In this document: in pieces, positions 445-54,029 of the stretch
Numbering within the stretch: the stretch's first letter is position 1
How the letters are laid out: every line of letters starts with the position of its first letter
Origin: a virus
Length of the DNA: 64,000 nt
Reading direction: 5' to 3' (one strand)
Virus record (IMG/VR): IMGVR_UViG_3300032053_000025
Coordinates: 24,622-88,621 of that record
The notes under the pieces: model-generated
The model's input: only the letters and a program-made list of their open reading frames with translations
Database searches by the model: none
Told to the model about the DNA's origin: nothing
Made by a program: the position numbers and the translations under genes

Positions 445-584
445 TACATTATTATCCTCATAATGATTGGATTGAACATAAATTAGAAGGCACTCAATGT
501 ATTTGCGAACCTAAAATTGATTGGCATTTAGGTATAGTTATTCATAATTCTGCCGATGGCAGAGAAGAGAAGGAGAGTATATGA
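441..584 (+). CDS. small His/Cys-rich hypothetical protein (47 aa)
   Basis: Hand-translated MIHYYPHNDWIEH..CICEP..IVIHNSADGRE; ATGA overlaps with both neighbours. Confidence 0.6.
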   Translation: MIHYYPHNDWIEHKLEGTQCICEPKIDWHLGIVIHNSADGREEKESI

Positions 585-1804
585 TAATTTCAATTCACCA
601 GCCCGAGGCTTTCTGTCATTTATCCCTTTTAGATACAATATCTAAATCTGAGTTGTTTATTATTGGGGACGATTTTCAATATCAGAAATCGTACTTTGAC
701 AATCGCAATAAAATTCGATCCAACTCTAAAGAAGGCTGGTCATGGCTAACTATCCCCGTTCAAGCTTCCAACAATCATATTGCTATAAAGGATATTAAGG
801 TAGCTTCGGGTGATTGGAAGAATAAATTACTCAATCAATTAACATCGAGCTATCAACATGCTCCTTATTTTAATGTTTATTTTCCTCAATTGCAAGAATT
901 ATTGAAGACACAAAGCGAATACCTTATTGATTATACTTTACCTATACTACAATGGTTCCTACTCCAATTTAAAATTTATACTCCAATTAAATTAATGAGC
1001 AAATTAAATATCCAATCTGATAATGGTTCTGATAAGGTTTTGGAAATTTGTAAAAAGGTGGGAACAAATACTTACTTATCGGGTCCAAGTGGGAAGGATT
1101 ATCTGAATTTAGCTTCCTTTAAGGAAGCAGGAATAGACTTGCAGTATCATAATTATTTACATCCTTATTACCAATCATTTCCAAAGGTAGATATGCTCCC
1201 AGGCTTATCTGCTTTAGATTGTTTATTCTCACATGGACCAAACTCAAACAATATTATGCAGGCTAAAGGTATAGGTAGCATGGCTACAATTATGGGGAAT
1301 ATTGAATATAAACATAGGTCCATTCTTGAGGTATTTGGCGGGGATGGTACGGGCCAATTATCATCATATGGTAACACAGTTGATTGTTCTAATTTAACAA
1401 TATGGGAATTAGATTTGCAAAATGTATATAAACTTAGGGATAAATATCCTCATGCTAATGTTAAGCATGTTGATTCTTTAATTGAAGCCAAAAAGACTAA
1501 TCAAACCTTTGATATTATTATAATTGATACTCCGGCATTGATGTCTAACAATAAATTATTACCTCAAATATCAAACTTACTTACCGAGGATGAGGATGGA
1601 ATACTTATATTTAGAGCAATTAAACAATCGTGGAATAATCATCCTTCAGTGGAAGTTGACCAACCCATTGAATATTGGAAATTAATTTTTCAACAGGACT
1701 TTGATATTATTAATATGAAAGAAGTGCAAAGAGAATATTTTTGGAGTGAAGGTAAGTGGAAATTATGGTTAAGCAATTACCTTTTCCAATTAAGGAGGAT
1801 ATAA
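581..1804 (+). CDS. WbqC-family protein fused to class I SAM-methyltransferase-like domain
   Basis: ISIHQP, DDFQY..NRNKI, WLTIPV, Y.HAPYF, YLSGPSGKDYL, LSALDCLF (WbqC); C-terminal ILEVFGGDG, IWELD, FDIIIIDTP. Confidence 0.85.
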   Translation: MIISIHQPEAFCHLSLLDTISKSELFIIGDDFQYQKSYFDNRNKIRSNSKEGWSWLTIPVQASNNHIAIKDIKVASGDWKNKLLNQLTSSYQHAPYFNVYFPQLQELLKTQSEYLIDYTLPILQWFLLQFKIYTPIKLMSKLNIQSDNGSDKVLEICKKVGTNTYLSGPSGKDYLNLASFKEAGIDLQYHNYLHPYYQSFPKVDMLPGLSALDCLFSHGPNSNNIMQAKGIGSMATIMGNIEYKHRSILEVFGGDGTGQLSSYGNTVDCSNLTIWELDLQNVYKLRDKYPHANVKHVDSLIEAKKTNQTFDIIIIDTPALMSNNKLLPQISNLLTEDEDGILIFRAIKQSWNNHPSVEVDQPIEYWKLIFQQDFDIINMKEVQREYFWSEGKWKLWLSNYLFQLRRI

Positions 1805-1805
1805 A

Positions 1806-2717
1806 ATGAGTAAAATATTCAAGCCTTTTAAACTCCCTAATGACTCTGTAGATGTAAATACTCTACAATTCCCTTTATTAGCCAGCAGAAAGCTGGATGG
1901 ATTGAGACTAGTTGTCAACAAGGGTGGTATGTTTACTTGTTCATTAAAACAATTTCCCAATGTGCAATTGCAGGGCAGGTTCGAGCATTTAATGAAGATT
2001 TCCAGAGGACTAAATTTACTCTTAGATGGAGAATTATTAGCTAAGAGTTTAACTTTCTATGAATTAAGTGGGCTTTGCAGGAGGCTAGACGCACCCTTAC
2101 CAGAGGATTTATATTTTTATGCCTTTGATGCGGTACAAAACGAGCAATATGATATGGAGTTTAGCAAGAGGATATCTTATTTAGACAATATAGCAAAATA
2201 TTCTTATGTTAAGGTTCTAGAACAAAGATTAGTTAAATCTATAGAAGAAGTCTGGGCATTTTATGAAGAGGCATTAAAAGAAGGTCATTGTGATGGGCTA
2301 ATCTTGAGAAGCCCAATGGGTAGATATAAATGTGGTAGAGCAACTATCAATGAAGGTTTGGGATATAAATTAAAGCCATTCGAGACAATAGACTCCGCAA
2401 TTATAGGGGTTGTACAAGCAACTGAGGTAGATCCAAGGGCAGAAAAGACAATCAACGAGCTGGGGCGGAGTACAACCTCTAAGAAATTAGGGGATAGAAT
2501 TTTAATTGAAAAAGCCTCTGCTTTTGTTGTCAAGTATGAAGGAAAAGATTTGAAAGTTACTATTGCAATGACTGATATAGAGAAAGAAGAAATTTGGAAG
2601 AATAAGGATTCTTATATTGGAAGATGGATTGAATTCAAAGCCATGAGGGTGGGAATGCTTGAAGATGGTTTGCCAAGGCACCCCACAACCCTGAGAATGA
2701 GAACCGATAAAGACTAA
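1806..2717 (+). CDS. lig: ATP-dependent DNA ligase
   Basis: SRKLDGLR, LDGEL, FYAFD, DGLILR, Y..GR, KLKP, IEFK..PRHP motifs. Confidence 0.92.
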   Translation: MSKIFKPFKLPNDSVDVNTLQFPLLASRKLDGLRLVVNKGGMFTCSLKQFPNVQLQGRFEHLMKISRGLNLLLDGELLAKSLTFYELSGLCRRLDAPLPEDLYFYAFDAVQNEQYDMEFSKRISYLDNIAKYSYVKVLEQRLVKSIEEVWAFYEEALKEGHCDGLILRSPMGRYKCGRATINEGLGYKLKPFETIDSAIIGVVQATEVDPRAEKTINELGRSTTSKKLGDRILIEKASAFVVKYEGKDLKVTIAMTDIEKEEIWKNKDSYIGRWIEFKAMRVGMLEDGLPRHPTTLRMRTDKD

Positions 2718-2718
2718 T

Positions 2719-2931
2719 ATGCACTATATGCCTAAAAATACCAACTATTTAGCGATACTCGATAAGACCGAATCCATAGGCAAACAAATTAACGCAAATA
2801 AAATGATTGATTTGCGTATAGCAAGGGGCGGTTGTTTTGTTGCCCGTTATTATATTAAGACTGCAAAAATTAAAGGTATTGAAGTAGACTTAATGTATGA
2901 AGTCAAGATTTATGACAATCTGAAATCATAG
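2719..2931 (+). CDS. hypothetical protein
   Basis: ORF tightly packed in operon. Confidence 0.5.
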   Translation: MHYMPKNTNYLAILDKTESIGKQINANKMIDLRIARGGCFVARYYIKTAKIKGIEVDLMYEVKIYDNLKS

Positions 2932-2941
2932 GAGAATAATA

Positions 2942-3637
2942 ATGGAAATTAAGCAATACAAAGACTATCAAATCCAACTTCGATCCTCCTCAGATGCAGG
3001 AGTATTCCAAGAAATTATCATTAACAATTGTTATGGTATTGATTTTAAATGGTTTGATAAAGTAAAGACCATCATTGATATTGGTGGCCATATAGGTATA
3101 TTTAGTTTATTTATTGCTCCTTATGTTGATAAGATTTATACCTTTGAACCTTATTGGCAAAATTATAGATTATTGGTAGAAAATGTAGACCAGAATAATT
3201 TACTATCTAAAATTAAATGTCATCAAAAAGCAGTTACCCATTATGAAGGAGTAATTGATTTTTATGAATCTAAACAAACCCATGTAAGACATACTATTGT
3301 ACCTCCGGGGCAATTAAAATTTTGCGACCAAGGGGAGAAAATAATTGTGCCTTGCACTTCTCTCTTCAATATTATGTCTACTATTGGGCATCCAACCTTA
3401 TTGAAAATAGATATTGAAGGTGGAGAATATTCCTTACTATTCAATACACCCGAGCAAGCATTTAAAAATATTACTTACATTGTTATGGAAACTCACCATG
3501 ACGAATCTTCCCTTTTCAATAAAGACGATCTTATCAAAAAATTAGAAAGTTATGGCTACAAAGTTTCCTGGAAATTTAACTGGAAAGACCCAGACTATAA
3601 AATGACAACCGGAGATTTAATAGCCATAAAAGAATAG
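2942..3637 (+). CDS. FkbM-family methyltransferase
   Basis: IIDIGGHIGIFS, FEP, LLKIDIEGGEY, IVMETH. Confidence 0.92.
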   Translation: MEIKQYKDYQIQLRSSSDAGVFQEIIINNCYGIDFKWFDKVKTIIDIGGHIGIFSLFIAPYVDKIYTFEPYWQNYRLLVENVDQNNLLSKIKCHQKAVTHYEGVIDFYESKQTHVRHTIVPPGQLKFCDQGEKIIVPCTSLFNIMSTIGHPTLLKIDIEGGEYSLLFNTPEQAFKNITYIVMETHHDESSLFNKDDLIKKLESYGYKVSWKFNWKDPDYKMTTGDLIAIKE

Positions 3638-3644
3638 GAGTAAA

Positions 3645-4520
3645 ATGAGTTATAAACTCCAATTATTAAAAGAAAGTTTAATACCAATTACTGCCCAAGA
3701 TTTAATTAATATAGGTGGAATTCCACCTATAGACCCCACCAAACAAGTGGCTATTGTTATTGATTCCTTCCTTAGAGATAAATGTTTATTAATCCTCCTT
3801 AAAAGTATATTTAAATTCGCACCTCATTATAAAATTTATATTACAGGCCAGGGCATCTATAGTAAAGAGAAAGATGCCCTTTTTTGTTTATTGAAGGTAG
3901 CAGGCCATACCATAATTAATTGTGGCTTTGATGCAGGATTAGGTCAATGTCACAAAAAGATAGTAGAATTTGTGACTGAGCCTTATATATTTTTCTGCCA
4001 TGAGGACGCTTTATTTACTGATAAAACTAACTTAGAATCAATGGTTAATATAATCAAACTTAATAGATATAGATTAGGTTGGCTATCTCCTTCTTCCTTA
4101 TTCAATCAACCTTCCCATTTATTATTGAAAAATTTAAATTTAGCTATTACTCCTCTTGAAGTAGAATTTAAAAATAGTCATAGAGATCCATTTATTTGCG
4201 ATATTGCAGGTACTCAAGGTTTAGTTAAATCAACCTTATTTAGTTCAATCCAATATGATGCTCAATTTAAAATGAATGAAACTTTAGACTTAATGTTAAA
4301 CATGAAATTTAATACTGTTAATAGAGTAGCAATCACCAACCAATCTATATTATGGCATCAAGAACCTTGTGAGCATCCTATCTATCTTCAATATAAGCAT
4401 AGGGAATGGTATTATGACCAATTATTAAGGACTAAATGGCAATTTACAAGTATTAATGGAAGAAAAATTAAAAGGGATAATACTAAGTTTCTTTATGTTA
4501 TGGAGGAAAATAATGGATAA
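3645..4520 (+). CDS. GT-A fold (GT2-like) glycosyltransferase
   Basis: VAIVIDSFLR..L..LLKSI, FDAGL, PYIFFCHED, YDAQFK..E; paralogous to next gene. Confidence 0.65.
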   Translation: MSYKLQLLKESLIPITAQDLINIGGIPPIDPTKQVAIVIDSFLRDKCLLILLKSIFKFAPHYKIYITGQGIYSKEKDALFCLLKVAGHTIINCGFDAGLGQCHKKIVEFVTEPYIFFCHEDALFTDKTNLESMVNIIKLNRYRLGWLSPSSLFNQPSHLLLKNLNLAITPLEVEFKNSHRDPFICDIAGTQGLVKSTLFSSIQYDAQFKMNETLDLMLNMKFNTVNRVAITNQSILWHQEPCEHPIYLQYKHREWYYDQLLRTKWQFTSINGRKIKRDNTKFLYVMEENNG

Positions 4521-5268
4521 ATCTATCGCAGTAATTATGCCCTGCTTTAAACGTAACGAATTATTAGCCCAAACTGTAGAAACATATAAGCAATTTATGC
4601 CTAAAGATTGGGTATTATTAATTGGGGATCAAGACCCTTCTGAGGCTAAATTTAAGCAATATAATGCTGGCAATATTCATTATTATCCCCTCCCCTATGA
4701 TTGCGGGATTAGCTTAGCCAGAAATATGTTGATTAAAGAAGCCTCTAAATCAGGCTTCGAATACGGATTATTATCTGCCGATAGTATACCATTAATTAAA
4801 ACGCCGGATTTAACTCCATATATTGAATTCCTTAAAATGGATCCTAATCATGGAATTATCGGGCTTCCTACGAGCGATAATTTAAAGAAAGAGGATTTAT
4901 GGAATGCTAATTTGTCCATTGATTCTGAGGGAATTCATTTATGGCCCGCTAACGAGTATACCGAGTTTAATGGGATTAAATATAAGAAATGCCAGATTGT
5001 TAGCAATTTCTTTTTGTTTAAATTGCAATTAGCACTTGAGAACCCTTGGAGGGAGGAATTAAAATTAGCAGAGCATGAATCGTTTTTCATTGACCTAATG
5101 CAGAAAACTTTATACAAGGTTTTCCATACTCCCTATAGGTTCGCTACATATATTCAATCTCGACCACCAGATTATGATATTTATAGGCGAAGGTTGTATG
5201 ATACTTATATCCCGTTGCTTCGTAAACTTTATGGGCTGAGGGCCTGGATAATTTACCATAATCGTTAA
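4513..5268 (+). CDS. GT2-like glycosyltransferase
   Basis: IAVIMPCFKR, LIGDQ, LPYDCGISLARN, NFFL, W.EELKLAEHESFF; start MDKSI after GGAGG. Confidence 0.75.
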   Translation: MDKSIAVIMPCFKRNELLAQTVETYKQFMPKDWVLLIGDQDPSEAKFKQYNAGNIHYYPLPYDCGISLARNMLIKEASKSGFEYGLLSADSIPLIKTPDLTPYIEFLKMDPNHGIIGLPTSDNLKKEDLWNANLSIDSEGIHLWPANEYTEFNGIKYKKCQIVSNFFLFKLQLALENPWREELKLAEHESFFIDLMQKTLYKVFHTPYRFATYIQSRPPDYDIYRRRLYDTYIPLLRKLYGLRAWIIYHNR

Positions 5269-6498: not shown

Positions 6499-6716
6499 AA
6501 TATCTTAGCAATAAACCATTCTCGGTGCCTGTAGGCACCTTACCATTCAATATTAAGCCTAATTGCGATTCATGCTGGCATTTTAAACGTTCAAACTTCT
6601 TTAGTAAACATCAATGTAATAATTGCCATTCATGGAAAAACTTCCTCAAAAAGGAAGTTAATTTTAAACAGGTTATTGATAATTTTCTATATCAATTATT
6701 TTTGGAGAAGAAATAA
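6495..6716 (+). CDS. Cys-rich hypothetical protein
   Basis: CDSC and CNNC pairs. Confidence 0.5.
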   Translation: MKYLSNKPFSVPVGTLPFNIKPNCDSCWHFKRSNFFSKHQCNNCHSWKNFLKKEVNFKQVIDNFLYQLFLEKK

Positions 6717-6717
6717 C

Positions 6718-8286
6718 ATGGCAACCTTATTTACAGCAGATTTGCATGGTAATGATACAACGATTGCTCTTCTAAGAGGATTTAAGACTAAAGAAGAGCA
6801 TGATAGTTGGCTTATTCATTGTTGGAATCAACAAGTTAATAAAAATGATTTAGTATATGTATTAGGTGATTTTTGTAAAGGTAATCACCATGAAGTAAGA
6901 TCATTTAGAATGAAATTAAAAGGTAAAATTATTTTAATCCTCGGAAACCACGACCATTGTTTCTCTCTTGAAACCGAAATATTAACAACCGCCGGATATA
7001 AATCCTTTAAATATTTAAAAATGGGAGATATTATTCCCACAATTAATAAAGAACAAAATATTATAGAAATGAACCCCATCGAAAATATAATGCAGGCATG
7101 GGTAGATCAAGCATATATGTTTAACGGAAGGTCTGCTTCGGGGGTTTTCAGTAAAAATCACGAACATATAATTTTGCAAAATACTTATTTAAAAAATAAA
7201 ACCGAACCAATAGAACGTAAATGGGTTAAATTACCTTCTTCTACCATTTGGAATTATAAATCTCGTTTATTAATGCCCGCTTCATTTATAAGTGGCCAGG
7301 AAGATATTAATATTTCAGATAACTGGCTATCGTTTTTTGGATGGTTATTTAGCGATGGGGGATTTGATAAACAAGGGGCCATTACTTTATACCAAAGTAA
7401 ACCAAAAAATATACCAATTATTGAACATTTATTAACACAACTTAAATTAACATATACGACTACTATAAGAAAAAATAAAACCCCTAATTGGTATAATAAC
7501 AAACTCATTAAGGGCAATTATCCAGCATTTGAATTTAGAATAAAGAGCGTAATAGGAAAACCAATATTAGAACAATTTTCCATAACCCACCGCCACCAAT
7601 TACCTTCTTGGTTTTTTAATCTTTCTGATAGGCAAGTGCGGTTGTTCCTTACCTCTTATAAATTGGGAAACGGAAGCAAGGGTAATTCCCCCTCAGAGTG
7701 TGTATGGGGAACAAAAGAATTATTATCCAGTCTTATGGGACTGTGTATTACGCATGGAATAGATTGTAATCTAGTGGAGCAAAATACTAGAAAGGGGGTC
7801 TATTATTTATGTTTGCGTAACAGACCTTTTGTAAAAAATATGCAGTACAAAAGAAATTATGGCATTAGAGAGATACCAGTAACCAATAGACAAATTATTT
7901 CTTATAATAATATGATGTACGATATAGAAGTTAAAAATCACACCTTTTTTATTAGACACAATGGAAAATCTTTAATTACAGGAAATTCTAACCGTATCCA
8001 AAATTTACCAGAATTATTCACTGGGATTTATGATATCAAGGAAATTAAAATCCGGGGATTCAAAACCACATTATGCCATTATTCGTTACGGACATGGCCA
8101 TCATCAAATTTTAATTCATTTATGCTCCACGGGCATAGTCATGGAGGCTTATTACCTCAAGGCAAGCAACTTGATGTTGACATAGGTTCTAATCATGGAA
8201 TCTTATATACTGAGGATGATATCTTAGCTATTATGAAACTTCGTGGGGACAATTTTAATTACATCGATAAATCCATAACTCCTTAA
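6718..8286 (+). CDS. calcineurin-like metallophosphoesterase, intein-containing
   Basis: FTADLH, VYVLGDF, GNHD, CHY, LHGHSHG motifs split by a 343-aa insertion. Confidence 0.9.
   Translation: MATLFTADLHGNDTTIALLRGFKTKEEHDSWLIHCWNQQVNKNDLVYVLGDFCKGNHHEVRSFRMKLKGKIILILGNHDHCFSLETEILTTAGYKSFKYLKMGDIIPTINKEQNIIEMNPIENIMQAWVDQAYMFNGRSASGVFSKNHEHIILQNTYLKNKTEPIERKWVKLPSSTIWNYKSRLLMPASFISGQEDINISDNWLSFFGWLFSDGGFDKQGAITLYQSKPKNIPIIEHLLTQLKLTYTTTIRKNKTPNWYNNKLIKGNYPAFEFRIKSVIGKPILEQFSITHRHQLPSWFFNLSDRQVRLFLTSYKLGNGSKGNSPSECVWGTKELLSSLMGLCITHGIDCNLVEQNTRKGVYYLCLRNRPFVKNMQYKRNYGIREIPVTNRQIISYNNMMYDIEVKNHTFFIRHNGKSLITGNSNRIQNLPELFTGIYDIKEIKIRGFKTTLCHYSLRTWPSSNFNSFMLHGHSHGGLLPQGKQLDVDIGSNHGILYTEDDILAIMKLRGDNFNYIDKSITP
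6958..7986 (+). mobile_element. intein with LAGLIDADG homing endonuclease domain
   Basis: Begins CFSLETEILT..G; block B SKNH; FFGWLFSDG; ends MYDIEVKNHTFFIRHNGKSLITGN followed by extein Ser. Confidence 0.92.
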
Positions 8287-34942: not shown

Positions 34943-36370
34943 TTATTTTTTTATTGCATTAACCAAATAAATTATATTCCCAGTTGGATTATCTTGTAAT
35001 CGCCATTCACCCTGCCAACCAAATTTATATATATCTTGAATATCTATCAAACTACCCAATCTTTCCTTAATTACTTGCTCATTATAAACTCTTAAATGAC
35101 TTTCATCCAAAAAATTGGGTACTGAAAATATTAACCTTTTTTCTTTAGGTATATTTGATAAAATCTTATAATCATCTAAATGCTCTAATACTTCGGTGGC
35201 AATATAGGTATCATATTCGCCTTCATAATTTGATTTATCATAAGCATTACCCACAACAACTTGAGGACTATTGGCAATTTTAACTGCTTCGTGTGAGAAA
35301 TCAAACCCGTTATAATTTTTAATAAAATTTTTTAAATTTGCAATTCCACATCCGATATCTAAACATCTATCTTCGCCAACTAACTGCCCTATTTTATTGT
35401 ACAGATGGTAATACCTAGACATGTCTGAAGAATTTGCAAATAATTTGTCATAATAATCCGATTTTTTTTCAACTTTAGATCGTATAGTTAATACGTTATT
35501 ATTGGTTGCTAATTCTGCATATTCTAACCATTTAATCCGGTTATTCGGTCCACATAACTCTGCCATAAATTCTATGGCTTCTTTAAAATCTGCGTTTACT
35601 TTAATTGCTTGTAAGCAGGCATCCTTGGCCTCATCATTTTTGTTAAGTGCCCAATAACATCTAGCCAACATTAACCAGGCTTCTGCCCATTCGGGGGGCC
35701 AATTTGTCCGGGTCAAATAATCTTTATACCAGTAAATTGCAGTAATCCAATCCTTACGATACCAAAATTCCCGCGCCAGATAGAAACATTCACGAATCAG
35801 ATTAGGATTATTACTTAATTCTTGTTTCAATATCCTTAATGCTCTATCAGGATCGTGTTGATGTGCCTTGCTATAGCCAAAGGTAATTTTTATATCCGAC
35901 TTGTTATTATCGGTATAACTCAAATAATTATGAATGTTACCTTTCCAATATACTTCTGGGCATCGCTTGAATAATCGAGGAAAATAAAATTGGTCGCCCG
36001 TTATATTGGCTTCCATTATACAATTAATAGTTTTTTGATTGTGTGATTCCGCAAATTCTATTGCCTTGCGGATTTTTAGTAGCCCTCCGATTTCGAGAGA
36101 TTCATCTGCATCAATGCTAAGGATAAAATCGGTATCGGCTTTGGATAAAATAAAATTGCGGGCGGAACAAAATGAATCGTGCCAAACATCCTCGGTATAA
36201 ATATTATCGGTATATTTCTTTGCTATTTCAATAGTATTATCTTGGCTGCCGGTGTCTGAAATATAGAGTGCATCTGCCTCTTTTATACTTTCAAGGCACT
36301 TGGCCAGACATTCCGACTCATTTTTTACAATTAGGCACACACCAATAGTAAGCTTTTTATTTTGTTCCAT
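34943..36370 (-). CDS. GT2 glycosyltransferase + TPR + methyltransferase-like fusion
   Basis: CLIVKNE, DTGSQDNT, FCSARN, LSIDADE; TPR helices; LDIGCG, EVLEHL, FSVPN. Confidence 0.88.
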   Translation of the reverse strand: MEQNKKLTIGVCLIVKNESECLAKCLESIKEADALYISDTGSQDNTIEIAKKYTDNIYTEDVWHDSFCSARNFILSKADTDFILSIDADESLEIGGLLKIRKAIEFAESHNQKTINCIMEANITGDQFYFPRLFKRCPEVYWKGNIHNYLSYTDNNKSDIKITFGYSKAHQHDPDRALRILKQELSNNPNLIRECFYLAREFWYRKDWITAIYWYKDYLTRTNWPPEWAEAWLMLARCYWALNKNDEAKDACLQAIKVNADFKEAIEFMAELCGPNNRIKWLEYAELATNNNVLTIRSKVEKKSDYYDKLFANSSDMSRYYHLYNKIGQLVGEDRCLDIGCGIANLKNFIKNYNGFDFSHEAVKIANSPQVVVGNAYDKSNYEGEYDTYIATEVLEHLDDYKILSNIPKEKRLIFSVPNFLDESHLRVYNEQVIKERLGSLIDIQDIYKFGWQGEWRLQDNPTGNIIYLVNAIKK

Positions 36371-39942: not shown

Positions 39943-41589
39943 TTAAACGCCCGTTTTACAGTGGCGTTTTTGTACTTCTGATTCCGGCGTTGAAAAGCCG
40001 GCGAATTCTATTAGGAATTCTGCGATGGAAAAAACTTCGATACTTTGATATAAATGGTCTTCTTTTGCTATACAAACAAAAACCACTCCATCTGATCGGA
40101 CCATCGATACTACTTTTTGAATTTGCTCATCAAATTTATAATCTAGAGGCATAAACAAAAATCCATTATAAGCCAAATGGCAGAATCGTTCATGAGCCCA
40201 AAATTTCATTTTCTCGAATCGCTTGATTAGTTGGTGATTCTCGTCCCGTTTAGGTTTTCCATCATCGTCAAGAACATAACCGACTTCAATGTTCTCATTA
40301 AATGAAACCCGGATTAATTTTTTATTATCAATTTCAGGGTCTGCCTCTAAACTATTTAATATGCTACGGCCACATCCATCAGTACTATCTATCGATATAT
40401 ACGGTGCCTTAAATTTCTCATATAAAAATTTAAAAATTGGTTCTTGCTCAACATTAGTAAGCCCACGTAAAGTTATATTATAAAGATATCTCCATTTCTT
40501 ATTTACTAACGCCCATACCATAATTTCTGTGATTCCAATATCACTAATATCGGCAGATACTATTATTTTGTCGGCATTGGGTGGTCGATCTACGATAATT
40601 CTATGTTTGTAAAGAAAAAAATTCTTTTTATTTAATTCATAGTTCTTTATTGTATTGGCTTCGTCTAATTCCCCGTTAGCTTTATGCGGATACACCAAAT
40701 CCCGCAACCTTTGCATATCAAAAGCTACTTCGGTATTTTGAATAACTTCTCCATCCACATATATCTTGAACGGAATACTTAATTCTCCACCATATTTTTT
40801 AATAGCATTTTGTCTTTGTTTCAAATTAAAGTCGGGATTTATCATCTGTGGAAGATTTAATACTCTTCCTTTTTTTCTATTCTCAACATCATAAAACTGT
40901 TTACCTGCTGGGGATAAATCCGTAAAATCGGTCATTCCACTTACTCGAAATACCGTTCCGGCAGAATGAATTGAATCTTGCCGTTTTTCATAAACTATAT
41001 CTGACTCTAAACTAGCTTCTTCGACCACAAGCCGTTTGAAATGTTTTTGCAAAAACTGGTCGCCTGCTCGGGTTCCACAAGCGACATTCATGTTTACACT
41101 TTGTAAAACCGTTCCTAATTTGGTGGTAATATAATAACTACGATCAATAGAAGCAATAAAATGCTCCAAAATTGGATGACTTTCAAAAGCTTTAACAATG
41201 GGTTCTAGTGCACCTTTTAAATGCCCCATATCAAAAGAACTGAACCCCATCGATTCGTTGACGGCAAATAAAATATAGAGGCAGGAATCTATTTTCGAAA
41301 TAAAGGCGGTCTTGCCGTAATTCCTAGCCGCAAAATTATAAATCGAACCACAATTACTCCGCATTTCCATTTTTTCTTGTTCGGATAAATTAGTGCCCTC
41401 TAAGGCCAAACCATACTCATGTGATAGCAATGGAAATTGACCTAAGCGAGTCTTAACAAATTTATCCTCGGAGAACGATGTAAGGTTATCTACACTTGAA
41501 AATAAAGTTTCAGCGAGTGCGATACTGTCGGTCATCGTTTCGATCATACGACGATCTTCGTCGGTCAAAATAATTTTAGGTTCAAGCAT
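39943..41589 (-). CDS. terL: terminase large subunit
   Basis: Walker A AARNYGKT, Walker B LVVEEA, nuclease VSADI, IDSTD.CG, EDHL. Confidence 0.8.
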   Translation of the reverse strand: MLEPKIILTDEDRRMIETMTDSIALAETLFSSVDNLTSFSEDKFVKTRLGQFPLLSHEYGLALEGTNLSEQEKMEMRSNCGSIYNFAARNYGKTAFISKIDSCLYILFAVNESMGFSSFDMGHLKGALEPIVKAFESHPILEHFIASIDRSYYITTKLGTVLQSVNMNVACGTRAGDQFLQKHFKRLVVEEASLESDIVYEKRQDSIHSAGTVFRVSGMTDFTDLSPAGKQFYDVENRKKGRVLNLPQMINPDFNLKQRQNAIKKYGGELSIPFKIYVDGEVIQNTEVAFDMQRLRDLVYPHKANGELDEANTIKNYELNKKNFFLYKHRIIVDRPPNADKIIVSADISDIGITEIMVWALVNKKWRYLYNITLRGLTNVEQEPIFKFLYEKFKAPYISIDSTDGCGRSILNSLEADPEIDNKKLIRVSFNENIEVGYVLDDDGKPKRDENHQLIKRFEKMKFWAHERFCHLAYNGFLFMPLDYKFDEQIQKVVSMVRSDGVVFVCIAKEDHLYQSIEVFSIAEFLIEFAGFSTPESEVQKRHCKTGV

Positions 41590-42519: not shown

Positions 42520-42879
42520 TTATCCTATTGCCCACAATCTAATTTTTCCGTGGGACTTCAAATATATCTTATTTCTTTCAATCTGATTAAATGGCAATGC
42601 TTCACCGGCATATAAAACTCCGTCCACTTTGTTGCCATCCCAACTAAATAAAAGAACATTTGCCGAATCGTTTGATATTTGCACATTAGAAGCACTGAAT
42701 CCAAACTCAATTAATTGCCATTGAGGGCCTTCTAAGTTATTTTCATCATACATTTCAAAAAACCAATTGGTGCCTAATGCCTGTTTGAGTTGCAAAAGTT
42801 GAGAAGCTACATTTAAGCCTTTATAAGAGGCATTGGTATCAACTTGCAGATTTTTTAGCAACTCATTATTAAGTTCCAT
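42520..42879 (-). CDS. structural hypothetical protein (beta-sandwich)
   Basis: ISNDS..FSWDG..G.LYAGE. Confidence 0.55.
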   Translation of the reverse strand: MELNNELLKNLQVDTNASYKGLNVASQLLQLKQALGTNWFFEMYDENNLEGPQWQLIEFGFSASNVQISNDSANVLLFSWDGNKVDGVLYAGEALPFNQIERNKIYLKSHGKIRLWAIG

Positions 42880-43720
42880 CGGATTCTCTATCTGTAGATT
42901 CCATTAAAGGGTCTATATTCTCAGTGCAATAAAGCTTGCGTTCTAACCATTTTCCATAAGAGTCATCCTGGCATTGACTGCCAAGTAAAACTTTGCATAC
43001 ATCAAGTAAGGTTATTTTGGATTCTTTATATAAGTTCCACAGCCAATCATTAGCTAGAATTTTATCCCTGAAAAAACTGTGTTTGAGAACGTCGTATGCC
43101 TCTGGGCGAAGGAGAAATAATAATGGTTTCCCGCAACTTGGACACTCCTTGTATTTGGAAACCTGGTTCAGTTCTTCGCTCCAAATTTTCATTTTTTTCA
43201 ACCATTGATTCCACTCAACCAATGGATCGTTCTTCTTCTTCTCTTCCGATAGTCCCAACAATTTTTTAATTTCAATTACTTTAGTGGTAAGTTCGGCTAA
43301 CGATCTCAATTCATTAATTGGCACCCTGGGATTTGTACCATTTCTCTGTGCATCTATGGCTTCCCTATTAAGAAAAGTTTGAATTCTATGAATCTGGGTT
43401 TCAAAATTAATACATGATTTCAATAAATCTTTATCCGATTCATTGGTAATATTATTTCCAGTAATATATTTATTAAAAAGAGTTAACGCAAAGGCCGCCT
43501 CTTCAGAACCAACCCAAGTACCGACCTCATTAGTAACCATTTCAATAATCGTGGGTTCTGCCGGAGTTGCATTAACAATGGTTCCATATTTCATATTGAA
43601 TTTTTCTTTCGCCACTCGCTCAAATTCTTCTACCGGCAAATTTGCAAAGGCCGGGAACACTTTTAATTTGGCTTTATAAGATTCAAAACTAATATGGGCT
43701 TTTTCGATTTTTTTCTTCAT
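42869..43720 (-). CDS. putative terminase small subunit-like protein
   Basis: First gene of packaging arm; helical with LLGLSEE and CPSCG; function inferred from synteny only. Confidence 0.4.
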   Translation of the reverse strand: MKKKIEKAHISFESYKAKLKVFPAFANLPVEEFERVAKEKFNMKYGTIVNATPAEPTIIEMVTNEVGTWVGSEEAAFALTLFNKYITGNNITNESDKDLLKSCINFETQIHRIQTFLNREAIDAQRNGTNPRVPINELRSLAELTTKVIEIKKLLGLSEEKKKNDPLVEWNQWLKKMKIWSEELNQVSKYKECPSCGKPLLFLLRPEAYDVLKHSFFRDKILANDWLWNLYKESKITLLDVCKVLLGSQCQDDSYGKWLERKLYCTENIDPLMESTDRESDGT

Positions 43721-43754
43721 TTTAAACTTAAATAGTGCAATGGGTTATATAAAA

Positions 43755-43822
43755 TAAAAAAGCCACTAAATATGCAAATTGGCATAGTTTCTTCCTATGC
43801 TAATTCACAGATCAAGTGGCTT
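43755..43822 (-). terminator. long hairpin + U6 ending the large RNA
   Basis: AAGCCACT...AGTGGCTTTTTT with inner GCATAG/CTATGC stem. Confidence 0.65.
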
Positions 43823-44741
43823 ATACCTATTTAACTAAGTTTAACCCGGATACCGGAAACTCAATAATGCTAAATAGTAAAGTATTTGTCTGTTAGTTTG
43901 AACTCAATTGTAAAATCCTGTAAGAGTATGGTTAAAACCCGATTTTCCATCGGGACCCTAATTTAGTTTATGGTTGTTTTACCAGATTAAACTACCACAC
44001 CTTACGGTGCAGGATATTTAAGAACCGATTACGCGATGCCCTCGGTTCGGGCCTCGAACCCTCTTAACCATAATGGTTTGGGCAATCCCCATATTATGTA
44101 GTGATTACCCTAAAGTTTTAATATCCTTTGTCCGAATATCCACCTGTGGTGGGTTTAAACCAAGGATTTCGTTCTGCAAACCAAGAATCTTTTTCCATGA
44201 AATCTGCCTCCAAATTTAACGGGTTCTTTGGGGAGGACAACCCGTAAGACTCTGCAAATTAACCTAATCTACTCCTTTGGTTAATTATTCCAAAGTATCC
44301 TATTCGATTAAGCCTATCTTTTGACTACTCCCCTTCCTCAGTGGCGACCTGAATAGGAACGGTTCGGGTTTCGTCGGTATAATATTTCCGGCATAAGCCG
44401 GTACTACATCAAGTCCTCAGCCTAAAGAGTAGGCACCCAATTTTCGAGATTGGGGATCAGAACCGGGTTTTGGCAAGACCTGACTTAGGAGGTCCCGTTA
44501 TCTTGCCGAGGTGAGACTAAAAACCACCTTTGCGGTGGCAGAGGATAGTTTTATGGAACCCTTGGAAAGAATCCCTAACTATCCTTGGTTGATTATAACC
44601 CTCTTTATGCTTACCACTTACAAGTGGCAGATAATAAAGAAGGAGCAAATAATTGAGGACATCATACATCTATGAAAGATAGCATATTTGAGGGAATATC
44701 CCTGCCGAAATCTTAGACAATAGACACTCTATATGTCCTCA
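43755..44741 (-). ncRNA. large (~990 nt) highly structured RNA, family unassigned
   Basis: No ORF >=60 aa; consensus promoter upstream, terminator at end; >15 stems incl. nested multibranch domains; raised GC. Confidence 0.75.
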
Positions 44742-44746
44742 TTATA

Positions 44747-44775
44747 AGTATACCACATGAAACCTTAATTTACAA
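44747..44775 (-). promoter_or_regulatory. sigma70 promoter of the large RNA
   Basis: TTGTAA-17 nt-TATACT with extended -10 TG. Confidence 0.75.
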
Positions 44776-44930
44776 GTATTTTGCCCATTTATTTTCACCA
44801 ATAATAAACCTAAGTGCTATATAAGGTTAGGTGGAAAAGAACACATGGTAGTGAAAAATAGTTTATTTAAATATTACTGATTATTGATGTAAAGTGATTT
44901 TTTTGGCTTGAAAATTGTAGTTTACAAGGA

Positions 44931-45590
44931 TTATCTCTTTAATCTATCAGTTCCCTCCACCGTCACATTCCCCTGCGATTTTGGTAATTCTCCCACATAT
45001 GCACAAGGCCACGGAAGGCCGCAGACAACACAATAACCATGCAATTTTCCTTCTTGTGGGTTATGCTCACCCCCACAACAAGCTCGGTGAGCTATGGTCT
45101 GAGCAGTTCGCTCAATTAAGTTCCCTTGTGATTTCAGGGCGGAGAGTTCGTTGGATAAATCTATAACATTTTTCGCGTTTGCTCTTGCTTCTTTCCACGC
45201 TTCTGTTTCGTCTAATAATCGTTTTACATCTGCAAGCTCCGTATCCTTGGCGGAGAGTTCGGATTGGAGCTCCGCAATCTCATCATGCAACTCATCCACA
45301 ATCCCCACATGAGCAATCAGGGCGGCATCGAGAGATTTGTTCCAACTCTCTTGTTGTGGTGTTAACATTGTTTCTGGCGGTCTAATTTTCTCTTGCGAGG
45401 GCCAGTCCGATGATGCTGATAGGACGGCTTCGGTGAAGGAGAGTAAAATATTTCCATCATCAGATACAATAACCGTCTTATTACCTTTACAAGCTGGACA
45501 AGTTATCTTTGCTGATGATGACACACTCTCTGGGTTATCAATGGTTCCTAATCCCCTACAACTTGGACAAACAATAGGATATGTTCTCAC
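44931..45590 (-). CDS. DnaJ-type Zn-finger + coiled-coil protein
   Basis: CPSCRGLG, CPACKGNK, coiled coil, C-terminal CC..H..CVVC; GTG start after GAGG. Confidence 0.6.
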   Translation of the reverse strand: MRTYPIVCPSCRGLGTIDNPESVSSSAKITCPACKGNKTVIVSDDGNILLSFTEAVLSASSDWPSQEKIRPPETMLTPQQESWNKSLDAALIAHVGIVDELHDEIAELQSELSAKDTELADVKRLLDETEAWKEARANAKNVIDLSNELSALKSQGNLIERTAQTIAHRACCGGEHNPQEGKLHGYCVVCGLPWPCAYVGELPKSQGNVTVEGTDRLKR

Positions 45591-45636: not shown

Positions 45637-45665
45637 AGTATAACATAAGTTTACTTAGTTTGCAA
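45637..45665 (-). promoter_or_regulatory. sigma70 promoter
   Basis: TTGCAA-17 nt-TATACT. Confidence 0.7.
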
Positions 45666-45669
45666 GTTT

Positions 45670-47330
45670 TGTTCAGAAAAATAATATACCATTAAATCTC
45701 ATTTCTCCAAAATCCCTAGAAATTCATAAACCATCAAAATTTACACACCTTATATATACGCCAATTTATATCTTATTTTTTTCACCCTATTATATAGAAA
45801 ATATGTTATTTGTCTTTATTGATTATTTACCTATGTTACATAATATACTCTCCCTAGAGGGAGAGTTAATAGTTTAATTAAGGGATCTCTTTAATAGAGA
45901 TCCCTATTAACTCTTTTAGTTATATTATTGAAAAGCATAATATAACTAGGTATTTCTAATCGAAATACCACTTCTAGCTTTTTAAAATTATATAAATAAA
46001 AACAAGTAAAGATTTAATAATGGAGATAATAAAGTAGATGATATTAAAGTGATAATAAGCGTCGGCCTCAAAGCTGAATAAACCCAATATAATTTATGGG
46101 TGCCTTCCAGGATTAGAACAGGTACCTGCTAAATCCAACCTACCCGGGGTAGCTACTATCATTTCATACAATTCTATGTATAATAATCTACAACAATGAA
46201 GCTATTAATAAGCTTAATCAACTCATACTAATTTAGTATTAATTAGGAGTTTAATAGTAATTGAGCTTGATAAAGAATAAATACATAACAAAATTGATAA
46301 GTTAATGTATTGTTGGGTAATTACTGAATAGTACTTATTAGTAATTAACCGGTAATTAAAATACCATATTGTAGATTCCACGGAATGGTTTGATATAGGT
46401 TGATAAGGTTTGAATAAATAGTGATAATAAAATCAAATAAAGCATAAAATAACCCAAATGCCCAAATTAAGGCATAGGATAGGCAAGGTTGCATTATTAT
46501 TAAAAAGAGTATGGATATGGCTTAAAATAATTTAAATGGCAAGGACAAGCCTTAGAACGATAATTTGAGGCATTGTAGTAACCATAATTAAAGTTTGGCA
46601 TAGGAATTCCAGGAAGTATAATAATTAAGATTAGATTAAATAGCATAATTAATTGTCAGATAGATCAATAATCATAATAAAATGAGCAATTAATTGGAGA
46701 AAATAATGTAAAGGATGTTAAAGATTGCATAAGGATGGTAAGTAAAAGTAGATAAAAGTAAAGAATGTTAAGGTTAGCATATTGGTAGGGAAAGGATAGG
46801 ATAATATACACCATAAATAAGGCTATAAAATAGATTAAATACTGTAAGAGGCGGAGTCTTGCAAGGTTGGAAAATTTAAAGTAGAATATGAGTATGGAAT
46901 GAGTATGGTAAGGTTGGATAAATGCCGATAATTGGATGATTATTCATCGATAGAGTATAACCGTGGTATGTATTTTGAGGCAGATCGGCGGGCTTGCTAA
47001 AACGGACCCGCCGGGGGTAGGGTATAGGTAAACTATTGCAGTATAACATAATAGAGTCTTATAATCTAATAGAGATTATAATACAAACATGACTTTTTTC
47101 CACCACCATTTTTTAATGCAAATGATTGATAAATTATACCTATAAATTACAATAGTAAGTATGTTTTATACTCACTATTTAAGCATAAGTAAGTAGATAA
47201 ACTACTTACTTTTTAAGCATAGTTTGCCCCGTTTACTACTCATTAATAGAGGATATTATACCTGTATAATTAATGTTTCTAATCAATCTATTTAATGTTA
47301 TTTATTGTGATATTTTAGGTTAGTTATAAC
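45670..47330. other. AT-rich non-coding region with clustered palindromes (origin or genome-end candidate)
   Basis: No ORF; inverted repeats 45847-45866, 45881-45905, 45917-45948, 46140-46152; lies at the strand divergence. Confidence 0.5.
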
Positions 47331-47333
47331 AAT

Positions 47334-47451
47334 AAAAAAGCCTAAGTAATTAAACTTAGGCTTTCTTTTGACTCTGTAAAGGGGAAGGTTAACGCTCATT
47401 TTATGGTTGAGTAACCAGTTATTTTAGTCTGATACTTCCTATCCTTTACAG
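47334..47451 (-). ncRNA. candidate small RNA (~118 nt)
   Basis: Promoter TTGACA-17-TATACT (47484-47456), closing stem CTGTAAAGG/CCTTTACAG, terminator AAGCCTAAG/CTTAGGCTT+U. Confidence 0.6.
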
Positions 47452-47537
47452 TTAAAGTATACATCATACTTTACTATTTGTCAAGAAAATAACCAACTTT
47501 TCTTAGGCTTACCAATTAGATACTATTAGGCCTCTTA

Positions 47538-48167: not shown

Positions 48168-48196
48168 TTGACATTTCAGAAATTCTCTGTTATACT
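48168..48196 (+). promoter_or_regulatory. sigma70 promoter
   Basis: TTGACA-17 nt-TATACT. Confidence 0.8.
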
Positions 48197-52929: not shown

Positions 52930-53262
52930 ATGAAGATCAACAAACAACTCAAAGACGGCAGTATAGAATCAATCAAGCAATGGTTAGCTCATCAAGTTAT
53001 TTTTAAGCATATTCCAAACAAGAAGGCACTCACTAATCAAGTCAATCGAATTATTGCAATCAAGCGTAAACGAAATTCAATCTATGCCCAGAAATTAATT
53101 GATAGTCCCCTATTTATTTTATCCTTGAAACAAACGAGGATCGATGTTAAACGGGACCAATTAACAGGCAGGCAAATTCCTTTAACTTGGAGTAAGAACA
53201 TCTCAAAGATCGCCCGGTATGTAAGATTAAATGAGCCTGGAGGCTTACAATGGCAGATATAG
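52930..53262 (+). CDS. basic hypothetical protein
   Basis: AAGGAG RBS; overlaps recombinase start. Confidence 0.55.
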   Translation: MKINKQLKDGSIESIKQWLAHQVIFKHIPNKKALTNQVNRIIAIKRKRNSIYAQKLIDSPLFILSLKQTRIDVKRDQLTGRQIPLTWSKNISKIARYVRLNEPGGLQWQI

Positions 53263-54029
53263 ATTTATTTAGAGATTGGTTATTATTGAATCGATTTTCA
53301 GTTACCCGCTACGCGGATAATATGCGAGTTTATTTCCGTCAAGAACCAATCTTTGATGAGGTTAGTTTTAACAGGTTTATTTTAAAACAAAGGCTTAATC
53401 ATTTGCCTGGCACTCTAAACAATTATATTAAGGCGGCTCAAGCATATAGTAAATTTGTTGGGGTACAGTTTAAATTGCCTCAGTATTTTGAGGTCACTGA
53501 TAAGTTACCTGCCTATATGTCATTTGAATTTTTTGAAAAGGAGATTATACCCGCACTACCTTTGATGTTTGAGCATCAACATTTAAAGATTAAAGCTCTA
53601 TTATATTTTATGTTTTTTTGCGGTCAGCGTAAACACGAAATTGAGGTTATGAAACGTTCGCAAATAAATTTTAAGGAGGGTACATTTTTAGCTTACAATT
53701 TAAAATCAAAGAATGAAAGATTAATACCATTGGCCTTCAAATTGATACCTATATTGAAGGAATATTTTGTTCAAGAACCAGAGGTTAATAATGCTTTCAA
53801 TTTGGGAGGAGGTTCATTGCAGTATATCTTCGATAAGTTAAAAACTAACTGGCCGGATAAACATATACATCCTCATATGTATAAACATTCTTGTGCTATT
53901 CATTTGCAAAGGAATGGATTTACTACGAGGGAAATTCAACATGTTTTGGGGCATCGATCAATTTTGACAACTGCGAAGTATGAACGAGTACACTTGGAAT
54001 TTTTGCAGAAGAAATTCAACCAACTTTAA
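53250..54029 (+). CDS. tyrosine recombinase (XerC/D-like)
   Basis: CGQRKHE, KSKNER.IP, HPHMYKHSCA, LGHRSILTTAKY. Confidence 0.88.
   Translation: MADIDLFRDWLLLNRFSVTRYADNMRVYFRQEPIFDEVSFNRFILKQRLNHLPGTLNNYIKAAQAYSKFVGVQFKLPQYFEVTDKLPAYMSFEFFEKEIIPALPLMFEHQHLKIKALLYFMFFCGQRKHEIEVMKRSQINFKEGTFLAYNLKSKNERLIPLAFKLIPILKEYFVQEPEVNNAFNLGGGSLQYIFDKLKTNWPDKHIHPHMYKHSCAIHLQRNGFTTREIQHVLGHRSILTTAKYERVHLEFLQKKFNQL

Follow-up and report, generated by a model that had tools for sequence, protein, structure and literature searches.

The window, that is, the whole 64,000-nucleotide stretch of DNA analysed here (positions 24,622 to 88,621 of IMG/VR record IMGVR_UViG_3300032053_000025), comes from an uncultured sediment phage and encodes on its minus strand a strongly folded non-coding RNA of ~1,000 bases, which is real and belongs to no catalogued family. 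The element spans positions 43751-44775 and the RNA itself 43751-44745(-). It lies directly upstream of a terS-like gene, the large terminase gene (terL) and the virion genes, in an unbroken minus-strand gene run that continues to ~10.9 kb (a 33-kb late block), so the preliminary description of this DNA was right to place it at the head of packaging and morphogenesis genes. The first gene of the block (42869..43720, minus strand), whose ATG is ~30 nt past the U-tract of the RNA, encodes a conserved 283-aa protein with CPSC...C motifs and no Pfam or PHROG family. This protein is taken as the small terminase by position only; its homologs are found immediately upstream of terL in two related loci, L053 and L042. 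The large terminase (TerL; 39943..41589, minus strand) is identified through the naming of homologs and through Atlas clusters, because it has no Pfam, PHROG or PDB sequence match. It has 77 homologs, several with inteins and one named 'Terminase large subunit' in UniRef, and in the nearest Atlas clusters Terminase_6N is present in 91-100% of members.

The RNA is preceded by a sigma-70-type promoter (44747..44775, minus strand), located by promoter scan and regular expression, with the -35 box TTGTAA, a 17-nt spacer and the TG-extended -10 box TATACT. The promoter scan, which covers this promoter type and leaves phage-specific late promoters outside its scope, scored it at 9/12 matches plus the TG ahead of the -10 box. 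The TTGnnn-spacer-TGnTATACT type makes up six of the 20 regular-expression matches in the whole 88.6-kb record, including those at 45665(-), 48168(+), 49060(+) and 55204(+), and the motif and first transcribed bases are near-identical in L074, L042, L031 and L053, so that the promoter proposed earlier is borne out and recurs in related loci. The minus strand of the window has just two such promoters (45665 and 44775), and none was found within 10.9-43.7 kb or in the gap before terS, phage-specific promoters being beyond the scan; promoter-like and terminator-like sites in the late block are not above shuffles.

The ~990 nt that had been described as free of open reading frames indeed contain no usable frame in any code. 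Five ORFs only, of 39-54 aa, are present in 43721-44930, and between 43700 and 44800 each of the six frames carries 20-27 stops of all three kinds per 366-367 codons; because all three kinds of stop fill all six frames, no frame is opened by stop reassignment. In the homolog L074 the longest ORF of the RNA (50 aa, 44517-44669(-)) is broken by a frameshift and by a stop at its codon 2. Hidden coding, or coding under another genetic code, is ruled out by the stops in all frames together with the breakage of this ORF.

The G+C content is 0.41-0.45 over 43900-44649 compared with 0.29-0.32 in the immediate flanks, which agrees with the raised GC noticed previously. The minus strand has a minimum free energy (MFE) of -316.8 kcal/mol, compared with -254.5 +/- 7.2 for shuffles (z = -8.7, with 0/20 shuffles equally good), which is better than chance, and the plus strand folds at -274.8 kcal/mol (z = -4.4); the excess is strand-specific, placing the RNA on the minus strand. 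All eight stems read from the letters by eye proved complementary (7/8 up to 9/9 pairs), five of the eight are in the MFE structure, and the hairpin at 44523-39 is real. The 3' hairpin and U-tract, likewise anticipated, form a long-stem intrinsic terminator (43751..43822, minus strand), recognised by fold energy and by comparison with L074, in which an imperfect 25-bp hairpin (43760-43822; -28.5 kcal/mol, z -5.5) is followed by U6AU4 at 43751-43761. The stem persists in L074, with 26 bp, although none of the 7 loop bases is the same.

The preliminary description could name no family for this RNA, and it is absent from Rfam 15, which gave 0 matches in the window at gathering scores. A cmscan of 43400-45100 against all 4227 families at E <= 10 returned eight weak matches, none near gathering score and none of them the packaging RNA (pRNA) of phi29-like phages, and riboswitch and T-box families had no match even at this threshold. 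Of 12 candidates scored across the whole 88.6-kb record, none matched the GOLLD model (RF02032, gathering 150 bits) at E <= 10. The ROOL model (RF03087, gathering 99.1 bits) had no match at E <= 10 or in cmscan, a negative of limited power because the control genomes were likewise without a match. No match to the tRNA covariance model was obtained at E <= 10 in the window region or in L074. YrlA (RF02553) was considered and rejected, scoring 17 bits (E 2.9) in the window and 24.6 bits in L074 against a gathering score of 69, and Ro/TROVE and RtcB genes are absent from the phage. A literature search, supplements aside, found no description of a structured RNA upstream of terminase genes like the present one. 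To our knowledge, very few structured bacterial or phage RNAs of 0.5-1 kb exist beyond the classical ribozymes and rRNAs, and the function of GOLLD and ROOL is still unknown.

One full-length homolog was found, at positions 2300-3343 of a metagenome contig (L074), showing that the RNA is conserved in another phage contig. The promoter is common to both, and 206/227 nt of the 5' domain, 113/116 nt of the central core and 147/156 nt of the 3' block are identical. These three blocks thus have 91-97% identity, compared with 67.6% (DNA) for the adjacent terS-like gene. Further relatives were sought by blastn against 50,697 phage records and by nhmmer against 72 TerL-relative loci, neither of which gave a match to the RNA, by single-protein scans of viral contigs, which gave no useful homolog, and by a search of genome contigs with a TerL profile and a 20-nt core string, which gave no homolog. 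A sequence-pattern scan of viral contigs produced one match, judged to be chance, and a second produced no relative among at least 115 stretches listed, the one that passed a loose filter being no relative either. The claim of one giant RNA holds as regards a large structured non-coding minus-strand RNA, but only in part as regards a single unit: the RNA is modular, with three conserved blocks and exchangeable or dispensable inserts between them.

The RNA opens with a 5' hairpin domain (44654..44741, minus strand, as are all parts that follow) closed by GAGGACAU/AUGUCCUC, a stem that pairs 8/8 and is in the MFE structure. Compared with L074, one closing-stem pair (C-G to U-A) and two inner pairs are changed on both sides, and the inner pairs that a fold of the window sequence alone predicts are not preserved there. 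The conserved 5' core (about 44515..44655) is defined by three models (R1, R2 and R3) and an alignment of eight lineage rows; in these models a 10-bp helix, P-a (44634-44643 with 44599-44608), encloses the hairpin P-b, and two further hairpins lie at 44542-44585 and 44523-44539. At variable block 1 (44373..44514, 142 nt), L074 has 73 unrelated nt in the same place. Among the DNA contigs of runs X2, X3 and X4 that were compared with the element, the X2 contig has 74 other letters replacing 44375-44518, and the X4 contig has the window version with 10 substitutions and 2 one-base deletions; six of the substitutions fall in unpaired positions, one changes G-U to G-C and three break predicted pairs.

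The central conserved core (44257..44372, 116 nt), which has no Rfam match, is shared not only with L074 but with the X2 and X4 contigs. At variable block 2 (44068..44256) L074 has 309 nt, including a tRNA-shaped module, and within this block the window has a dispensable 99-nt two-hairpin module (44112-44210), the X3 contig joining 44111 to 44211. The semi-conserved block (43969..44067; 64/100 nt identical in L074) contains hairpins at 44049-44061 (UUCGAGG loop), 44022-44048 and 43969-43999. The pairing of the second is kept in L074 through 3 consecutive both-side changes, and the UUCGA-loop hairpin shows one G-C to A-U change. An insert (43915..43968) made up of the hairpin GGGUCCCGAUGGAAAAUCGGG and its flanks is missing from L074, and the 3' conserved block (43827..43914), with a hairpin at 43827-43877, leads into the terminator, which is included in the 147/156 count given above.

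RNAalifold on the two sequences identified 13 pairs with both-side changes between the window and L074, in a structure fitted to both. When the window-only fold was applied to L074, 33 changed pairs were kept and 59 broken, no better than slid controls; within the well-aligned blocks the figures were 14 kept and 21 broken, with 26 changes in unpaired positions. Structural support is therefore taken from individual helices and the 5' core, and not from full-length covariation, and the structure of the middle 700 nt is only weakly supported. In the 5' core, on the other hand, covariation is evident: in the eight-row alignment 96.5% of cells are paired compared with 77.9% in shuffles, and 24/34 pairs are changed on both sides compared with 3-4 in slid controls.

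The 5' core is also present in shorter RNAs (~200-500 nt) upstream of terS-like or terL genes at seven other loci. Model R2, built from 4 clade-2 sequences only, matches L042 (48.5 bits, E 8e-12), L031 (26 bits, E 9e-5) and L053 (21 bits, E 5e-4), and its best match in the whole 64-kb window is the core site (16.1 bits, E 0.043). Model R1, which rests on the window and L074, also picks out L042, at the position given by R2 (20.7 bits, E 5e-4). With the P-a and P-b pairing kept, model R3 scores 64.3 bits on the window, but the window is in its training set, and 62 bits on L074, which is outside the training set yet nearly identical to the window; the independent support from R2 for membership of the window's core is weaker than the R3 scores. 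Over the collected loci R3 found no new member, an opposite-strand match in L026 (E 0.05) being taken as chance. We propose the core, with P-a, P-b and the two hairpins, as a candidate new RNA family.

What relatives have in common is a 5' leader module of ~130-230 nt, which is followed, depending on the phage, by a terminator and terS, by small ORFs, or by ORFs and a tRNA array. The window, L074 and L053 share one order: promoter, core RNA, intrinsic terminator, ~30 nt, terS-like gene. L053 is a minimal version, with a 13-bp terminator stem and U7 and the core ~30 nt from the terminator, a distance that is ~700 nt in the window. In L042 the order is promoter, RNA, long hairpin, small ORF, terS and terL. 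The order of promoter, RNA, terminator and terS is not universal, because in L031 the core has no terminator after it and ORFs lie directly 3', and the clade-2 RNAs (L075-L079) come after small ORFs instead of a promoter, with terS having its own promoter.

Because its front part recurs in related phages, the RNA most likely gates transcription into the packaging and virion genes. Our tentative preference, to which we would give not quite an even chance, is that it is a new modular cis-acting late-operon leader controlling read-through, by analogy with canT, conAn2 and put, and carrying non-coding RNA cargo in the slot of its relatives' tRNA arrays. That the region is one transcription unit, with the RNA as leader of the 33-kb packaging and morphogenesis block, is put forward just as tentatively. 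On the sequence evidence, the host-type promoter with its extended -10 box starts an RNA comprising the 5' hairpin domain, the core, ~700 nt of blocks and modules, and the terminator. The nascent 5' core, either by itself or together with a phage or host factor, would act in cis on the RNA polymerase that is making it, and the polymerase would read past the terminator and on through the late block, while transcripts without the element would stop there; the central 700 nt may be extra cargo within the leader. Because the core is ~700 nt from the terminator in the window, a processive mechanism fits better than a local switch.

One feature of the antitermination-RNA class is present, namely a same-strand RNA heading a long operon. 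The window, L074 and L053 have an intrinsic terminator before the terS-like gene, and in the window no promoter of the scanned type lies after it, but a phage-specific late promoter may. The available portion of one source gives canT a length of 452 nt, describes it as cis-acting with terminator T1 after it, and has systems of this kind acting over up to ~30,000 nt (PMC11658703). Partial texts of two others give conAn2 regions as ~260-600 bp (PMC8191782) and put as acting on polymerase as nascent RNA (PMC9378689). Against the leader reading, the window terminator has a very long stem, which is the kind that resists antitermination for conAn, where an 'extraordinary long stem' has this effect according to excerpts of a further source (PMC10325885). 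The exceptions in clade 2 and L031 also count against it, as does the possibility of an unrecognised phage-specific late promoter in the 30-nt gap. A role for ~130-230 nt would leave 700 further kept nt unexplained, and of the 35 related virus records that R3 searched in full, no more than 2 have the core, both already known. As no internal late-block terminators are above chance, processive action may be needed at one site only.

The main rival, which we consider unlikely but deserving of attention, is a free-standing, stable, trans-acting RNA like GOLLD or ROOL, that is, a discrete 1-kb molecule ending at its own terminator and acting elsewhere, perhaps by scaffolding as a multimer or by serving a tRNA- or translation-related takeover of the host, with its position incidental or shared with tRNA islands. 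It would account for the RNA having a promoter to itself and ending in a very strong 25-bp, U-tract-tailed terminator, of the long-stem kind mentioned above, for the 97% identity of the 116-nt central core between two phages, and for modules that are swapped or deleted among variants, much as happens in the variable regions of large ornate RNAs. The middle part also folds better than shuffles by itself (window z = -4.4, L074 z = -2.9), but column-by-column covariation over this region is not above controls. In the TerL relatives the gaps upstream of terL hold same-strand tRNA arrays in 12/12 loci, which were chosen for having ORF-free gaps (96 tRNA matches), and this phage has 0 tRNA genes by ARAGORN in the window or the whole record, with 0 also in L074. 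The insert in variable block 2 of L074 further matches the tRNA-like part of YrlA (24.6 bits, E 0.013) and has a cloverleaf-like four-way junction in its own MFE structure. According to the consulted part of a preprint, GOLLD and ROOL are phage RNAs often near tRNA islands, the GOLLD linker sometimes having tRNAs, and they form RNA-only homo-oligomeric nanocages (bioRxiv 10.1101/2024.12.08.627333). However, neither model matched, and it is the 5' core that the lineages have kept in common, with ORFs directly after it in L031, L042 and clade 2, as for a 5' UTR. If transcription always ended at the terminator, the terS-like gene 30 nt on would moreover have no visible promoter. The same tRNA arrays, the gain and loss of modules and the negative whole-length covariation test could point to a functionless spacer, a decayed tRNA array or recombination scar that happens to fold well. 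This is very improbable in view of the absence of tRNA matches by either method, blocks better conserved than the neighbouring gene, a terminator stem kept while its loop changes, the covarying 5' core and the strand-specific fold.

A ligand- or tRNA-sensing attenuator, switching its own terminator as a riboswitch- or T-box-like leader does, would fit what the window, L074 and L053 show, where a structured leader runs into an intrinsic terminator right ahead of gene one. It is nevertheless improbable, given the lack of any match to those families, a core-terminator distance that varies between ~700 nt (window) and ~30 nt (L053) and so leaves no fixed expression platform, and, by eye, no conserved alternative pairing with the 5' strand of the terminator. 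The role in virion assembly or packaging suggested in the preliminary description is not supported: the link is positional, consisting of the location immediately upstream of the terS-like and terL genes, a feature shared with phi29 pRNA. The pRNA of phi29 is ~120-170 nt and unrelated to the window RNA in size and architecture, pRNA is not among the cmscan matches, and the element is missing from most relatives that share the TerL family (33/35 records), which makes a packaging or other virion-assembly RNA extremely unlikely. The conserved part is a 5' leader module, and because this module precedes differing terminator, ORF or tRNA content, control of late-block transcription is indicated over a role in the virion.

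The proposed cis-acting leader resembles canT and conAn2, in which a very long operon likewise begins with a same-strand structured RNA several hundred nt in length, and RNA-bearing transcripts have to get past an intrinsic terminator behind it. The likeness to these and to put is one of layout, with no sequence relation; canT and conAn2 belong to conjugative elements (Tn916 and pLS20), whereas the window RNA is from a phage and, at 1 kb, has ~700 nt of extra modules. No partner resembling ConAn1 is apparent, as neither the gene upstream nor the small ORF downstream is conserved among members: the 233-aa zinc-finger gene preceding the RNA is missing at that place in L074, and the window phage, L074, L031 and L053 lack the small zinc-ribbon ORF found after the RNA in L042 and clade 2. 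In HK022 put, which is ~70 nt with two stem-loops, and in the PR'-6S RNA-tR' late leader of lambda, a phage RNA or leader likewise runs from a promoter ahead of long gene blocks with a terminator to overcome. In lambda the protein Q acts at a DNA site, and no Q-like gene is conserved next to the window RNA.

If the core is an RNA antiterminator, the mechanism of HK022, pLS20 and Tn916 would extend to the late operons of uncultured phages, and the gathering of tRNA islands and large ncRNAs in the leader slot would be explained; if the RNA is free-standing, it would be a new large ornate RNA suited to structural work. The RNA comes with a testable context in its single strong promoter, covarying 5' core, terminator and 33-kb run of late genes for which no second promoter is visible. 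A more speculative and rather doubtful possibility is a third giant modular phage RNA class beside GOLLD and ROOL, whose 5' module would make RNA polymerase terminator-proof over the 33-kb late operon without a dedicated protein, and whose swappable central modules, tRNA mimics included, would be functional cargo replacing the tRNA island, for example as decoys or scaffolds acting on host tRNA-directed defences or translation machinery. Like the window RNA, GOLLD and ROOL are very large ornate phage RNAs, and their variable regions can hold tRNAs according to the same preprint in part (bioRxiv 10.1101/2024.12.08.627333), which the tRNA-shaped module of L074 and the position in the relatives' tRNA-array slot recall; unlike them, the window RNA has as its conserved part a 5' leader module common to much shorter RNAs. 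The L074 insert aligns to the T-arm, a closed acceptor-like hairpin and the D-arm of YrlA (model positions 27-81), and in contrast to YrlA this tRNA-shaped module is an insert within the L074 RNA and not the whole RNA.

The ~1-kb RNA at 43751-44775 (-), which lies ahead of the late packaging and virion genes, was claimed in the preliminary description to be an ORF-free, GC-raised and densely structured unit behind a consensus promoter. That promoter was recovered by a promoter scan at 44775-44747 (-), with a TG-extended -10, and from there to the ATG at 43720 only five ORFs of 39–54 aa are present. All frames over the region carry 20–27 stops each, of all three kinds, and the longest small ORF is disrupted in L074, a metagenome contig with a full-length homolog. 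The G+C content does climb to 0.41–0.45, all eight of the stems listed by eye are complementary, and the unit ends, as described, in a hairpin, here of 25 bp (-28.5 kcal/mol) and followed by U6AU4. The proposed comparison with dinucleotide shuffles also bore out the folding, with -316.8 kcal/mol (z = -8.7) for the - strand vs -274.8 kcal/mol (z = -4.4) for the + strand, an excess that is consistent with an RNA read from the - strand. Folded alone, the middle 684 nt gave z = -4.4, and the L074 counterpart z = -2.9.

No homologs of the RNA were found by blastn in phage records or by nhmmer in 72 loci around relatives of the large terminase (TerL). The 283-aa protein encoded at 42869-43720 (-), termed terS-like as it is taken for a small terminase by position only, was used as an anchor, giving six proteins in a large protein collection and, through a scan of JGI metagenomes, 31 loci. 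The RNA was found in one of the 103 loci compared (L074:2300-3343), directly 5' of its terS-like gene (68% identical); DNA identity between the window and L074 is 67.6% in this gene and 88.9% over the next 1.6 kb. The alignment of the two RNAs is a mosaic of conserved and replaced blocks. The promoter with the 5' domain (206/227 nt identical), the central core (113/116 nt) and the 3' block with the terminator (147/156 nt, with seven of the nine differences making up the entire terminator loop) are conserved. Lengths in the window and L074 differ elsewhere, at 142 vs 73 nt for variable block 1, 189 vs 309 nt for variable block 2 and 53 vs 5 nt for a window-only insert. The L074 insert is predicted to include a tRNA-shaped four-way junction. 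Variants on contigs from four sediment runs include one in which exactly 44112-44210 is missing, one with two RNA segments swapped for other sequence, and one with variable block 1 as in the window, with 10 substitutions.

Covariation over the full length, between the window and L074, is not convincing. RNAalifold gave 13 compensated pairs, in a structure chosen to suit both sequences, and the window-only fold was retained in L074 no better than slid controls, and only moderately within well-aligned blocks. The single helices that are supported are the 5' closing stem, the hairpin at 44022-44048 (three consecutive two-sided changes), the UUCGA-loop hairpin, and the terminator, of which the loop is replaced in L074 and the stem retained.

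On comparative sequence evidence, the 5' core (44515-44653, -), a helix enclosing a hairpin and followed by two more, is an RNA family across related loci. Four more distant, clade-2 loci (L075, L076, L077, L079; terS-like ~40% identical) possess an ORF-free RNA of 375–509 nt 5' of terS, with a fold z of -8.0 and eight compensated pairs among the four sequences. By eye, their core resembles that of the window in having the same 10-bp helix, made of different base pairs, that encloses a hairpin, then GUUAU. R2, a covariance model built solely from these four, matched the related loci L042 (48.5 bits), L031 (26.1 bits) and L053 (21 bits), and its top match in the whole window was the expected core site, if marginally (16.1 bits, E 0.043). 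R1, trained on the window and L074, recovered L042 (E 5e-4) at a site identical to that of R2, and L042, being found by both models, therefore bridges the window group and clade 2. In an alignment of the core that is model-fitted and so biased towards structure (eight true and two spurious partial rows), 96.5% of cells are paired vs 77.9% in shuffles, a level reached by 0/500 shuffles, and 24/34 pairs show two-sided changes vs 3–4 in slid controls. The core is rare, occurring in 2/35 related virus records searched whole. Weak, chance-level matches to R1 and R2 also fall on both strands of an AT-rich stretch, 45819-45929, which holds two perfect hairpins, CUCUCCCU.AGGGAGAG and AGGGAUCUCU.AGAGAUCCCU, within an ORF-poor region (45650-47500, 24–31% G+C); a similar hairpin pair lies at L074:463-589.

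L053 is a minimal version of the window layout, running from promoter (11/12 matches, TG) to ~200-nt core, 13-bp hairpin with U7, ~30 nt, terS-like gene and terL. The order in L042 is promoter, ~300-nt RNA, long hairpin, small zinc-ribbon ORF, terS and terL, and in L031 promoter, RNA, small ORFs, a tRNA array, then terS/terL; the L031 core has no terminator 3' of it. In clade 2 (L075-L079), small ORFs precede the RNA and terS has a second promoter. The zinc-ribbon ORF (~47–65 aa, with a Shine-Dalgarno) lies directly 3' of the RNA in L042 (1743-1940), L077 (1611-1751), L075, L076 and L079, and is absent from the window phage. Promoters of the RNA's type drive the + strand early region of the window phage, and on the - strand of the window occur at 45665 and 44775 only. 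The shared consensus (TTGnnn, spacer, TGnTATACT), present at these two sites, at 48168, 49060 and 55204 (+), at record position 13040 (+) and in related contigs, is conserved past the -10, where it runs on into (A/T)ATAAGT and a GAGG-like start of the transcript. In the region corresponding to the RNA, same-strand tRNA arrays were present in 12/12 relatives examined, which had been picked for ORF-free gaps (96 tRNA matches). Loci of the same TerL family with large arrays 5' of terS/terL include L006, L010, L012, L013, L029 (>20 matches alone), L031, L040, L041, L061 and L068, amongst others.

Searches of Rfam 15 at gathering scores gave no matches across the 64-kb window, and at E <= 10 eight weak matches in 43400-45100, the best at 23 bits vs thresholds of 35–160. 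Judged by sequence, the RNA is of no family catalogued in Rfam 15, and no description of a structured RNA upstream of terminase genes like the window's was found in the literature searched. Its kind is known, be it that of the large leader RNAs acting in cis in mobile elements or that of the large ornate phage RNAs. The recurrent order of promoter, core, terminator and first late gene seems to leave no space for a further promoter of this type and, with a layout like those of canT, conAn2 and put, favours a cis-acting leader conditioning read-through, a reading that we put forward tentatively. The nascent leader would condition, in cis, passage through the terminator into the late genes, and the 700 nt that the window clade has in addition would be cargo carried in the leader slot. 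That slot holds tRNA arrays in the relatives examined, and the L074 insert appears tRNA-shaped. Tn916 has Porf7, canT (a 452-nt cis-acting RNA) and T1 ahead of its operon, and a reach of up to ~30,000 nt is reported for systems of this sort (PMC11658703); the conAn2 regions of pLS20 are 260–600 bp (PMC8191782), and put is the phage counterpart of this arrangement (PMC9378689). The promoter, cis-acting RNA, terminator and operon of Tn916 come in the window's order, a likeness of layout that pLS20 conAn2 and phage put share.

The main rival, a free-standing RNA like GOLLD or ROOL, seems less likely than the leader. These are phage RNAs near tRNA islands (bioRxiv 10.1101/2024.12.08.627333), and a very long terminator stem is reported to resist conAn antitermination (PMC10325885), both of which favour this rival. 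A search of the entire record at E <= 10 gave no match to GOLLD (RF02032) or ROOL (RF03087), and ARAGORN detected neither tRNA nor tmRNA in the window or whole record. Readings of the RNA as riboswitch-like, as pRNA-like or as junk are weak.

The source record is an IMG/VR virus of 88.6 kb (completeness estimate 95%), of which the window is bases 24622-88621. Its late block is an uninterrupted - strand gene run from ~43.7 kb down to ~10.9 kb, closed by a clear terminator at 10893-10869, and promoter-like and terminator-like sites within it are not above shuffles. It opens with the conserved 283-aa protein, to which no Pfam or PHROG family was assigned, followed by two small genes and TerL (39943-41589, -), then by fibre, glycosyltransferase and further virion genes. 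TerL had no sequence match in Pfam, PHROG or PDB and was identified through homologs (n = 77, one a terminase large subunit per UniRef, several with inteins) and Atlas clusters, the nearest of which have Terminase_6N in 91–100% of members. Many of the homologs (P0007, P0011, P0012, P0020, P0022, P0024-P0026, P0049, P0060 and P0067) reach 700–960 aa and contain domains of inteins or homing endonucleases (PF14890, PF14528, PF05203), none of which occur in the window TerL. A GT2-TPR-methyltransferase fusion lies inside the virion block (34943-36370, -), and sugar and modification genes (WbqC-like, FkbM methyltransferase, GT2) at 581-5268 (+). The phage may be temperate, given its tyrosine recombinase (Phage_integrase, E 5e-20) at 53250-54029 (+); two related virus records are classed as provirus. 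A 536-aa metallophosphoesterase-domain protein (6676-8286, +) and a nearby 197-aa RNA ligase (PF09414; 8930-9523, +) are a possible pair for RNA (tRNA) repair; the phage itself has no tRNA genes.
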